A DNA stretch of 64,000 bases, taken from assembly GCF_057098645.1 (NCBI RefSeq), contig NZ_CM169472.1; one strand, 5' to 3'. The notes under the pieces were generated by a model. It saw only the letters and a list, made by a program, of their open reading frames with translations. It had not been told where the DNA came from and searched no databases. This document shows, piece by piece, positions 1,930 through 9,948 of the stretch (positions are counted from its first letter, which is position 1; every line of letters begins with the position of its first letter). Made by a program: the position numbers and the translations under genes.

Positions 1930-4818
<2,889 letters not shown>

Positions 4819-6504: not shown

Positions 6505-7200
6505 GTGAGCGAAATTAAAGACGTTATTGTTCAGGGGTTGTGGAAAAACAACTCTGCGCTGGTCCAGTTGCTCGGCCTTTGTCCTCTGTTGGCGGTCACG
6601 TCCACTGCCACTAACGCTCTGGGTTTAGGACTTGCGACTACGCTGGTACTGACGCTGACCAACCTGACCATTTCGACGCTGCGTCACTGGACGCCAGCCG
6701 AGATCCGCATTCCCATTTACGTGATGATCATCGCCTCGGTGGTCAGCGCTGTACAGATGCTGATCAACGCCTACGCCTTTGGCCTGTATCAATCATTAGG
6801 GATTTTTATTCCGCTGATTGTCACTAACTGTATCGTTGTGGGCCGCGCTGAAGCCTTCGCCGCCAAAAAAGGTCCGGCGCTTTCGGCACTGGACGGCTTT
6901 TCAATTGGTATGGGCGCAACCTGCGCCATGTTCGTGCTGGGTTCACTACGCGAAATTATCGGCAATGGCACATTGTTTGACGGTGCAGATGCGCTGTTAG
7001 GTAGCTGGGCAAAAGTATTACGCGTGGAGATTTTCCACACCGACTCCCCTTTCCTGCTGGCGATGCTGCCACCAGGTGCATTTATTGGCCTGGGACTGAT
7101 GCTGGCAGGAAAATACCTGATTGATGAAAGAATGAAAAAGCGCCGTACTGAAGCAGCTGCCGAACGTGCATTGCCAAACGGTGAAACAGGGAATGTCTGA
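6505..7200 (+). CDS. rsxE: Rnf/Rsx complex subunit E
   Basis: 231-aa membrane protein paralogous to RsxA; its stop overlaps the nth start (ATGA). Confidence 0.92.
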
Positions 7201-7835
7201 TGAACAAAGCAAAACGCCTGGAGATCCTCACTCGCCTGCGTGAGAACAATCCTCATCCCACCACCGAGCTTAATTTCAGTTCGCCTTTTGAATTGCTGAT
7301 TGCCGTACTGCTTTCCGCTCAGGCGACCGATGTCAGTGTTAATAAGGCGACGGCGAAACTCTACCCGGTGGCGAATACGCCTGCAGCGATGCTTGAACTG
7401 GGCGTTGAAGGGGTGAAAACCTATATCAAAACGATTGGGCTTTATAACAGCAAAGCAGAAAATATCATCAAAACCTGCCGTATCTTACTGGAGCAGCATA
7501 ATGGCGAGGTTCCGGAAGATCGTGCTGCGCTTGAAGCCCTGCCCGGCGTAGGTCGTAAAACAGCCAACGTCGTATTAAACACTGCATTCGGCTGGCCGAC
7601 TATTGCTGTCGACACGCACATTTTCCGCGTTTGTAATCGTACTCAATTTGCGCCGGGGAAAAACGTCGAACAGGTAGAAGAAAAGCTACTGAAAGTGGTT
7701 CCGGCAGAGTTTAAAGTCGACTGCCACCATTGGTTGATCCTGCACGGGCGTTATACCTGCATTGCCCGCAAGCCCCGCTGTGGCTCTTGTATTATTGAAG
7801 ATCTTTGTGAATACAAAGAGAAAGTTGACATCTGA
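7200..7835 (+). CDS. nth: Endonuclease III (DNA glycosylase/AP lyase)
   Basis: 211 aa with HhH-GPD region and C-terminal 4Cys cluster (CIARKPRCGSCIIEDLC). Confidence 0.93.
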   Translation: MNKAKRLEILTRLRENNPHPTTELNFSSPFELLIAVLLSAQATDVSVNKATAKLYPVANTPAAMLELGVEGVKTYIKTIGLYNSKAENIIKTCRILLEQHNGEVPEDRAALEALPGVGRKTANVVLNTAFGWPTIAVDTHIFRVCNRTQFAPGKNVEQVEEKLLKVVPAEFKVDCHHWLILHGRYTCIARKPRCGSCIIEDLCEYKEKVDI

Positions 7836-8445
7836 AGAAAAGGGGTAACACCGATTACCCCATTGATAACCTTTCTTTATCCTCTTTTAAAACATCTTTT
7901 TAACGTCAATGATGCCATTGCTTAGCGTTATCATCAGGTAATCCGTTTGCGGATAACCAAAAATGCAGGTTAATTGTTTTTTTAATAGCGAAATTTTCTA
8001 TTCATTCGTGATCAAGATCACGATGCTGTGGCAATGTAAAAACATTGCAAGAATCAGGTTAAAATCATTTAAATTTACACACGCAACAAATATTGACCTA
8101 CAAAACATTACACTGGCTATTTTTCAGAAACTGGACTATCTCACTAGGAAAAACGCTAAATAGCAGAACATATCGCCGTCAAGCCATCATCCCCCTCTCA
8201 ATGCAGTGAAAAAATCTGCCGTTACGTTTTTTGAAAAATTTAACGCTGGATAACATTTCCCGGAATGGTTGAATTCCCCGCCTCAGTTATATGTAACAGA
8301 TTATTACAAAGGACTTGTCTGAAAGTGCAAGATAGTGAACATTACCTGCCGTTTCCCCTCCCACTATAACAATTGCGCGTATGTTTTTTAGGCATAACGC
8401 GAGAAAGCACCCCCGTTAATATGGGATGTAAAAAAAGAGGTAAAA

Positions 8446-9948
8446 GTGTCCACTGCAAACCAAAAACCAACTGAAAGCGTCAGTTTGAACGCTTTCAAAC
8501 AACCGAAGGCGTTCTATCTCATCTTCTCGATTGAGTTATGGGAACGTTTTGGTTATTACGGCCTACAAGGAATTATGGCTGTTTACCTGGTTAAACAACT
8601 GGGTATGTCTGAAGCGGATTCAATCACCCTTTTCTCTTCCTTTAGTGCCCTGGTTTATGGTCTGGTCGCTATCGGCGGCTGGTTAGGTGACAAGGTACTG
8701 GGTACTAAACGCGTAATTATGCTCGGCGCTATTGTGCTGGCGATTGGTTATGCTCTGGTTGCCTGGTCTGGTCACGACGCCGGTATCGTTTATATGGGTA
8801 TGGCGGCTATTGCGGTCGGTAACGGCCTGTTTAAAGCTAACCCGTCTTCTCTGCTTTCTACATGCTATGAGAAAAACGACCCGCGTCTGGACGGTGCATT
8901 CACCATGTACTACATGTCCGTCAACATCGGCTCTTTCTTCTCTATGATCGCCACCCCGTGGCTGGCCGCGAAATACGGCTGGAGTGTTGCGTTTGCGTTG
9001 AGCGTTGTAGGCCTGCTGATCACTATCGTTAACTTCGCCTTCTGCCAACGCTGGGTTAAACAGTACGGTTCAAAACCAGATTTCGAGCCTATCAACTACC
9101 GTAACCTGCTGCTGACCATTATTGGTGTTGTGGCACTGATCGCTATCGCCACCTGGCTGCTGCACAATCAGGAAGTTGCGCGTATGGCGCTGGGCGTTGT
9201 TGCCTTCGGTATCGTGGTGATCTTCGGTAAAGAAGCCTTCGCGATGAAAGGTGCTGCGCGTCGTAAAATGATCGTTGCCTTCATCCTGATGCTCGAAGCC
9301 ATTATCTTCTTCGTGCTGTACAGCCAGATGCCAACGTCACTGAACTTCTTTGCGATTCGTAACGTTGAACACACCATTCTGGGCCTGGCCGTAGAACCTG
9401 AGCAGTATCAGGCACTGAACCCGTTCTGGATCATCATTGGTAGCCCGATTCTGGCCGCTATCTATAACAAGATGGGCGATACCCTGCCGATGCCAACTAA
9501 GTTTGCAATCGGTATGGTGATGTGTTCTGGTGCGTTCCTGATTCTGCCGCTGGGTGCAAAATTCGCGTCTGACGCAGGTATCGTGTCTGTAAGCTGGCTG
9601 GTCGCAAGCTATGGCCTGCAGAGTATCGGGGAACTGATGATCTCTGGTCTGGGTCTGGCAATGGTTGCTCAACTCGTTCCGCAGCGTCTGATGGGCTTCA
9701 TTATGGGTAGCTGGTTCCTGACCACTGCCGGTGCAAACCTGATTGGTGGTTATGTTGCGGGTATGATGGCTGTGCCGGATAACGTTACCGATCCGCTGAT
9801 GTCACTGGAAGTCTATGGTCGCGTATTCTTGCAGATTGGTGTCGCTACTGCCGTTATTGCAGTACTGATGCTGCTGACCGCGCCGAAACTGCACCGCATG
9901 ACGCAGGATGACGCTGCAGACAAAGCGGCGAAAGCAGCCGTAGCGTAA
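8446..9948 (+). CDS. dtpA: Proton-dependent di/tripeptide permease DtpA (TppB/YdgR), POT family
   Basis: 500-aa MFS/POT transporter with the ERFGYYG signature motif. Confidence 0.92.

Follow-up and report, generated by a model that had tools for sequence, protein, structure and literature searches.

The long nth-dtpA intergenic region of Escherichia coli as a probable, spacing-conserved control region of dtpA

The nth-dtpA locus

The stretch of DNA analyzed here (64,000 nucleotides, hereafter the window) belongs to Escherichia coli O145:H28 strain RM12761. In the RefSeq annotation, the genes rsxD, rsxG, rsxE and nth are followed by dtpA, gstA and pdxY. The gene nth occupies positions 7200–7835 and dtpA (also tppB or ydgR), which begins with a GTG start codon, positions 8446–9948, both on the plus strand. 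DtpA is known to import di- and tripeptides as well as peptide-like antibiotics such as alafosfalin and to aid gut colonisation, and its promoter was found to be mutated repeatedly during long-term starvation.

The RefSeq gene borders leave a gap of exactly 610 bp between nth and dtpA (7836–8445), equivalent to 1,712,159–1,712,768 in MG1655. Among the 43 intergenic gaps within the window's first 50 kb it is the longest; their median length is 85 bp, and the next in size measures 334 bp. The gap was found in 5,423 of 5,426 complete E. coli genomes, and no annotated feature lies inside it in MG1655 or among the E. coli genomes listed. The initial annotation had drawn attention to a long region with several A/T tracts and no credible open reading frame (ORF), and these observations hold: the gap contains 11 runs of at least five A or T, and it yielded no conserved ORF and no Pfam match. 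Its description as unusually AT-rich is correct relative to the whole window (GC 0.372 vs. 0.509) but does not extend to other intergenic DNA, for which the value is ordinary (0.32–0.48 in the other window gaps of at least 100 bp).

A hairpin with a GC-rich stem of 7–8 bp (GGGGTAA-cacc-gATTACCCC, 7842–7861, plus strand) begins 7 nt past the nth stop codon and is the putative end of the rsx-nth operon. It has the stem of an intrinsic (Rho-independent) terminator but no U-tract on the plus strand, where its tail reads ATTGATAACC; in E. coli a T-run adjoins it only on the minus strand. All species examined carry a hairpin after nth, differing in sequence and mostly without a clean U-tract. The earlier statement that a strong upstream terminator is missing is thus right as to the U-tract, but it passed over the GC-rich hairpin that directly follows nth.

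Start site and core promoter of dtpA

Published ChIP-exo data localise two regulators in the gap. The OmpR peak at 1710621–1710680 (U00096.2) corresponds to 8274–8333 in the window and has a quoted centre at -46.5 from the dtpA start site, and the GadX peak at 1710534–1710554 (U00096.2) corresponds to 8187–8207, with a quoted centre at -151. Coordinates were converted by adding 1,976 bp and then subtracting 1,704,323; we take 1,976 bp to be the offset between U00096.2 and U00096.3, and it agrees with the total lengths of both versions. The two distances, which come from supplements of one laboratory and were probably drawn from RegulonDB, place the dtpA transcription start site at 8348–8350 on the plus strand (about 1,712,671–1,712,673 in MG1655).

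The start site falls 5–7 nt 3' of the -10 element of a core promoter at 8315–8343 (plus strand), which consists of a -35 element TTGTCT (8315–8320), a 17-bp spacer and a -10 element AACATT (8338–8343). The sequence GATAGTGAACATTAC in this region shows no variation across 71 species. A study that followed evolution during long-term stationary phase has reported that an A-to-T change at nth/dtpA (+503/-108), described as -10-adjacent, arose repeatedly and raised dtpA mRNA about 23-fold. This change is at window position 8338, where it turns AACATT into TACATT and so gives the -10 hexamer back its initial T. The poor core (TTGTCT/AACATT) and the 23-fold gain from a single change are as expected of an OmpR-activated sigma-70 promoter. 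A consensus promoter scan of 7700–8600 returned zero sites; such a scan cannot pick up so weak a promoter, and the result fits a weak promoter that depends on an activator. With a start at 8348–8350, the dtpA leader is about 97 nt long and about 515 bp of the gap lie upstream of the start. The ChIP-exo distances and the mutation at 8338 therefore do not support the long leader that had been suggested for this gap, its length being about 97 nt and not about 600.

Regulators of dtpA

According to a database summary, dtpA is activated by phospho-OmpR and repressed by Leu-Lrp and GadX. Activation by OmpR has been reported with a fusion carrying -201 to +15, which was OmpR-dependent and was repressed when OmpR was overproduced. 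As this fusion reproduces both activation and repression at high OmpR, the blocks that lie further upstream are not needed for OmpR control. ChIP-exo at dtpA gave one OmpR peak only, spanning -17 to -76. The OmpR control anticipated by the initial annotation is thus supported by the fusion as well as by the ChIP data that it had proposed to consult, the one peak mapping to 8274–8333. KWWGTTACAT has been published as the OmpR motif, and GTTACATTTTGTTACAT as its repeat. Inside the peak, a proximal OmpR site, ATGTAACAGATTATTACAAAGG (8291–8312), adjoins the -35 element, contains an exact GTTACAT on the minus strand and hardly varies among 71 species. The gap's closest match to the repeat lies here (13 of 17 positions at 8291–8307; 12 of 17 on the other strand), in keeping with the tandem GTTACA-type half-sites of 10-bp phasing expected next to the -35 element of an OmpR-activated promoter. 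The xxACAT motifs of many other blocks were also considered as OmpR sites. Strong matches to the repeat were no commoner in the gap than in shuffled sequences; the idea of many OmpR sites was therefore dropped, and only the proximal site stands out.

GadX has been reported as a dtpA repressor bound at about -151, and its ChIP-exo peak (8187–8207; PMC4918353 and its supplement) overlaps a conserved block, block C, described below. Binding of YdcI to the nth-dtpA intergenic region has been reported, and genomic SELEX has placed tppB among new cAMP-CRP targets in vitro, in a gene-level listing (PMC3105977). OmpR and GadX are the factors whose sites the published data localise here; for CRP, Lrp and YdcI, regulation or binding has been reported.

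Conservation and fixed spacing across the Enterobacteriaceae

One genome per species was scanned, which gave 80 Enterobacteriaceae loci with dtpA, and 71 of the gaps were aligned. In all 80 loci nth lies upstream of dtpA on the same strand. The gap measures 570–638 bp in 70 of the 80 species; longer gaps occur in Kosakonia and Phytobacter (about 1,060–1,185 bp) and in Intestinirhabdus (735 bp). The neutral baseline was taken from 249 four-fold degenerate sites in nth and dtpA, at which identity to E. coli averages 0.48.

Against this baseline the gap is a succession of conserved and unconserved segments. The first, 7836–7963, is a variable spacer after nth with an identity of 0.36, below the four-fold baseline; it is the site of gene insertions, and the nth-proximal spacer occurs in 26 distinct lengths (94–161 bp). 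It is followed by block A (7964–8021, 0.76), a spacer (8022–8096, 0.35), block B (8097–8180, 0.68), a second spacer that includes block C at 8204–8216 (8181–8234, 0.48), block D (8235–8258, 0.90) and a third spacer (8259–8285, 0.44). The OmpR site, the core promoter and the first 25 nt of the leader form the next conserved segment (8286–8375, 0.85). Within the leader, a first hairpin is variable in sequence (8376–8405, 0.51), and the part with a second hairpin, an A7 tract and the Shine-Dalgarno sequence is again conserved (8406–8445, 0.88). When ten four-fold sites were drawn at random, a mean of 0.85 was reached in none of 100,000 draws, which argues that the blocks are under selection.

The spacing of these blocks is nearly constant. 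The block 7964–8345 is 380 bp long in 64 of 71 species and 379–381 bp in all 71, despite about 156 bp of unconserved spacer. Between anchors from 7967 to 8340, seven of nine intervals have the same length in the 71 species and the other two are off by 1 bp in a few. For comparison, the dtpA-gstA gap (104 bp) occurs in 19 lengths, from 98 to 166 bp, across species. Small indels are tolerated in the transcribed leader and essentially none in the upstream array. No periodicity of 10–11 bp was seen in the conservation profile.

The longer gaps locate the left edge of the array. Kosakonia and Phytobacter have an extra gene between nth and block A (in Kosakonia, a 141-aa membrane protein encoded on the minus strand), and in Intestinirhabdus this position is taken up by additional non-coding DNA. 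As the array keeps its distance to dtpA despite these insertions, it appears to be a unit that belongs to dtpA, with a left edge at about -386.

The upstream blocks

The left part of block A (7964–8003, -386 to -347) is conserved and contains CAGGTTAAT-N2-T7 at 7966–7985 and AAAtTTTCTAT at 7991–8001. By our own count, this part in E. coli resembles what we take to be the Lrp consensus. It is followed by a CRP-type palindrome (8004–8025) with the core GTGATCAAGATCAC at 8008–8021 and the centre at 8014.5, or -335 from the start. Most species have TGTGA-N6-TCAC here (71-species consensus tGTGAtcnaGATCAc), and GTGA-N6-TCAC occurs only twice in the 64-kb window. Judged by its sequence, the E. coli core GTGATCAAGATCAC conforms to the TGTGA-N6-TCACA palindrome and is a candidate CRP site. 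Its centre at -335 is not a class I or class II position (-41.5, -61.5 or -72.5) and lies far beyond the usual activating positions. A direct repeat, TGTTA-N6-TGTT (8034–8050), stands out in most genera, its Escherichia version (ATGTAAAAACATTGCAA) being degenerate; the repeat presumably resembles an ArcA site.

Block B (8097–8180, -253 to -170) contains ACAAaACAtTAcAC, ATTTTTcAGA, tGGgCTATATCACTG and AGCAGAACATATCGCC; its overall conservation is 0.68, rising to at least 0.85 at 8158–8177. Block C (cAGTGaAAAAAaC, 8204–8216) is conserved and is overlapped by the GadX region (8187–8216). Block D (GAAATTTAACGCTGgATAACATTT, 8235–8258), with a conservation of 0.90, has its centre near -101 and two xTxAC half-sites 10 bp apart, which makes it a candidate distal OmpR-type site; it matches the OmpR repeat at only 10 of 17 positions, so that we infer rather than read off this assignment. 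Both localised factors, OmpR and GadX, fall outside blocks A and B, an observation that counts against a role of the distal blocks. Readings of the blocks as Lrp, ArcA, Fur, sigma-54, sigma-28 or matS sites were made by eye against consensus sequences, and none is firm.

The dtpA leader

The 5' leader (8350–8445, plus strand, about 97 nt) comprises the tract UUUCCCCUCC, two hairpins, an A7 tract and the Shine-Dalgarno sequence AGAGG (8436–8440). At +3 to +12, UUUCCCCUCC does not vary between species. Hairpin 1 (8376–8401) folds in all 52 distinct sequences with a mean of -11.5 kcal/mol and a mean z of -2.8 against shuffled sequences, and its fold is kept although its sequence changes between species. 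Hairpin 2 has an inner stem CCCG/UGGG (8412–8425) with a UUAAUA loop, and its pairing survives GU, AU and GC changes. In the minimum-energy fold of E. coli, CCUC of UUUCCCCUCC pairs with GAGG of the Shine-Dalgarno sequence. As the whole leader folds no more stably than its shuffled versions (z -0.3), no claim is made for this pairing. As for riboswitch-type features, the leader shows two simple conserved hairpins, no Rfam match and the whole-fold z of -0.3. A leader peptide or upstream ORF is not indicated: conserved ATGs at 8381, 8421 and 8426 open ORFs of inconsistent length and lack a Shine-Dalgarno sequence, and the ATG at 8426, which has no ribosome-binding site, runs straight into a TAA (conserved ATG-TAA, 8426–8431).

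In Salmonella, tppB mRNA has been verified as a target of the small RNA GcvB; E. coli retains the site, and RIL-seq chimeras have been obtained there. The best predicted pairing of GcvB R1 lies in the coding sequence at 8454–8472, outside the gap, and is no stronger than in shuffled sequences (p about 0.15). RNAduplex with full-length GcvB returned a meaningless long duplex and was set aside.

Tests for hidden genes in the gap

The longest ORF in the gap has 66 aa (7963–8163, plus strand). A Pfam search with the four longest gap ORFs (66, 42, 38 and 36 aa) gave no match, and across 71 species the gap shares no start codon that opens a consistent ORF. Within the block 7964–8345, stops occur in six frames in all species and no period-3 pattern is seen. 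An Rfam scan of 7600–8700 with E-values up to 10 returned chance-level matches to snoRNA and Bacteroides small RNA models, far below thresholds. RNAalifold on 35 diverse sequences of 7960–8350 gave no consensus structure (-1 kcal/mol) and no covariation, which argues that this region of about 390 bp is not a large structured RNA. Since the block is neither coding nor structured RNA, the constraint on it appears to act on the DNA.

The covariance-model search that had been proposed thus points to no RNA family in the gap, and the suggestion of an unannotated small RNA or upstream ORF finds no counterpart in Rfam, in the MG1655 RNA annotation, or in a conserved ORF or structure in 7960–8350. A hidden gene, for example a minus-strand transcript running from near the CRP site to the hairpin at 7861–7842, is already largely refuted and has a very small probability: the terminator-like site with its TTTTCTT in E. 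coli, the CRP site 150 bp upstream on that strand and the existence of 66-aa and 36-aa ORFs would suit it, but the candidate body (7862–7960) shows the lowest conservation in the gap (0.36) and varies in length, the minus-strand T-run is missing from other genera, no RNA is annotated in MG1655 or in the E. coli genomes listed, and the ORFs have unconserved start codons, stops in all frames and no Pfam match. The promoter, conserved body, terminator and known family by which a small RNA gene would be recognised are not found together here, as the body is unconserved and matches no Rfam family.

A model of the control region

The gap is probably the cis-regulatory region of dtpA joined to the end of the rsx-nth operon, with the far-upstream blocks also acting on dtpA. 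In this arrangement the terminator-like hairpin would close nth and be followed by a freely evolving spacer of about 120 bp (7836–7963). A control region of about 385 bp (7964–8347) would come next, in which conserved blocks, presumably bound by proteins, alternate with unconserved spacers of fixed length. The weak sigma-70 promoter (TTGTCT/AACATT) would need OmpR just upstream of its -35 element and would start transcription at about 8349, and the resulting leader of about 97 nt, with its two conserved hairpins, A-rich tract and Shine-Dalgarno sequence, would precede the GTG. Regulation of dtpA would also involve blocks A and B (-386 to -170), with the CRP-type palindrome at -335. The absence of indels suggests that the bound proteins may keep a fixed geometry through looping or wrapping of the DNA, and several signals could thereby be combined at one dtpA promoter.

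A stronger version is offered tentatively and is less likely than not. Here 7964–8345 would be the scaffold of a nucleoprotein complex of fixed geometry that holds CRP (-335), the factors of blocks A and B, GadX (-151) and OmpR (-101 and -47) in register, so that the region would be enhanceosome-like rather than a set of independent sites. In principle, a cause of the fixed spacing other than protein geometry is conceivable. In a related reading, block A would drive a conditional promoter not described so far.

Such a second promoter, in or just 3' of block A and dependent on CRP or on ArcA/FNR, would give a leader of 300–400 nt under some conditions. We regard it as rather unlikely. It would account for a conserved CRP palindrome that has no known promoter nearby and is adjoined in most genera by the ArcA-like repeat. 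In Salmonella, anaerobiosis and leucine both induce tppB, which would also suit it, and the known promoter's -10 region, AACATTAC, is repeated at 8102–8109. On the other hand, nothing convincing in the way of a conserved -10-like hexamer was seen on either strand at -41.5 or -61.5 from the CRP centre, and the DNA just 3' of the CRP-type site (8050–8095) is unconserved. The region 7960–8350 shows no conserved RNA structure or covariation, and MG1655 has no feature annotated in the gap. The pattern of indels, tolerated in the leader and absent from the array, is the opposite of what a shared transcript predicts.

It is improbable, too, that the far-upstream blocks serve another function of the DNA, as a site for nucleoid proteins or chromosome organisation or as a downstream element of rsx-nth. 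The position of the localised factors outside blocks A and B would be explained in this way. The locus is terminus-proximal (a published landing-pad site here is named 'chromosomal terminus'), and spacing as strict as this is unusual for ordinary promoters. The insertions speak against it, since the blocks keep their distance to dtpA and not to nth when genes are inserted. The GTGA-N6-TCAC spacing of the palindrome is CRP-like and differs from the 13-bp matS pattern, and the blocks are continuous, with the same fixed spacing, with the bound GadX and OmpR sites.

Implications

In outline, the control of dtpA was mostly known: its promoter, its regulation by OmpR and its regulation by a small RNA have been described, and the finding from which this analysis set out therefore adds little to them. 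The only new element is descriptive, namely a family-wide, spacing-locked control region of about 385 bp with far-upstream blocks. With a defined left edge at about -386 and an internal spacing that is fixed throughout the family, this region offers a cheap test of higher-order promoter architecture. There is also a practical side, since the nth-ydgR gap, assumed to be neutral, serves as a landing pad for reporter libraries. Only 7862–7963 looks neutral; an insertion further to the right would split the conserved regulatory array.

Comparison with known systems

The dtpA region can be compared with three systems. Promoters of class I and II activated by CRP share with it the GTGA-N6-TCAC palindrome, and tppB is a SELEX target of CRP; dtpA differs from them in that the site lies at -335 from the only known start, compared with -41.5, -61.5, -72.5 or -92.5.

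The csgD-csgB intergenic region carries many transcription-factor sites over several hundred bp. Like the dtpA region, it is AT-rich, extends over several hundred bp, is under OmpR control and brings several global regulators to one promoter. The dtpA region is not divergent, its upstream neighbour having the same orientation. The fixed spacing of 380 bp over about 25 genera was measured for dtpA only.

The ompF region of E. coli has OmpR sites F1–F3 next to the -35 element and a distant site, F4, at about -380 to -361. Alike, ompF and dtpA rely on OmpR beside the -35 element of a weak sigma-70 promoter, and low OmpR activates whereas high OmpR represses either gene; in both, the conserved DNA reaches to about -385 and a structured leader is targeted by a small RNA. 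Unlike ompF, dtpA shows a single OmpR peak in ChIP-exo, which is not at the distal blocks, and in place of a clear OmpR repeat its distal block carries a palindrome of the CRP type; dtpA also lacks the osmolarity response of ompF and ompC. Overall, we propose that dtpA may integrate its signals much as ompF does with its distant OmpR site F4.

Promoter and leader of dtpA

The 17-bp spacer between the -35 and -10 elements of the core dtpA promoter (8321–8337) carries a short inverted repeat in many genera. Both arms of the repeat vary together across genera, occurring as CCTG...CAGG, CCAG...CTGG and GTGC...GCAC, and in Escherichia the repeat is degenerate (TCTG...CAAG). The repeat may serve as the operator of a repressor that binds as a dimer. 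Further downstream, 61 of 71 species keep a start-stop in the leader, an ATG followed directly by TAA (8426–8431). This start-stop comes immediately 3' of the second leader hairpin (8412–8425), with the Shine-Dalgarno sequence (AGAGG, 8436–8440) 5 nt further on, and has no ribosome-binding site of its own. The start codon of dtpA is a GTG at 8446, and the opening GTGTC is identical in all 33 aligned species.

A stretch of 21 nt shortly 3' of nth (7876–7896, TTTATCCTCTTTTAAAACATC) is 76% complementary to the Shine-Dalgarno region of dtpA (8425–8445). On transcripts reading through from nth, such pairing could mask the dtpA ribosome-binding site. The stretch lacks conservation beyond Escherichia, and the complementarity may therefore be a chance match in AT-rich DNA. 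Closer to nth, the nth terminator hairpin of E. coli (7842–7861) is followed by TTTTCTT on the minus strand, so that it resembles a better terminator for a minus-strand transcript than for nth. The minus-strand T-run is missing from other genera.

Insertions and annotation of the nth-dtpA gap

In L085, the locus of E. coli GZ2408C and one among the matches listed (5,423 genomes have a match), the IS66-family element ISCro1 is inserted at the equivalent of window position ~8047. The site falls in the unconserved spacer between conserved blocks A (from 7964) and B (8097–8180) of the dtpA control array, and the element separates block A from dtpA. In Kosakonia oryzendophytica (L045, 1835–2260) and in the Phytobacter locus L081, the interval separating nth from the control region of dtpA holds an extra minus-strand gene for a predicted membrane protein of 141 amino acids. 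In NZ_CP007133.1, the locus tags skip from ECRM12761_RS10250 (nth) to RS10260 (dtpA) across the gap (7836–8445); RS10255 seems to have been a feature within it that has since been dropped from the annotation. The rsxC gene (2500–4818) is 2,319 bp long in the window compared with 2,223 bp in MG1655, and the difference of 96 bp probably reflects a variable repeat number within the gene. Massively parallel reporter libraries use the same nth-ydgR gap (ydgR being dtpA) as a chromosomal landing pad, and, depending on the exact insertion point, a landing pad placed there could cut the conserved control array of dtpA in two.
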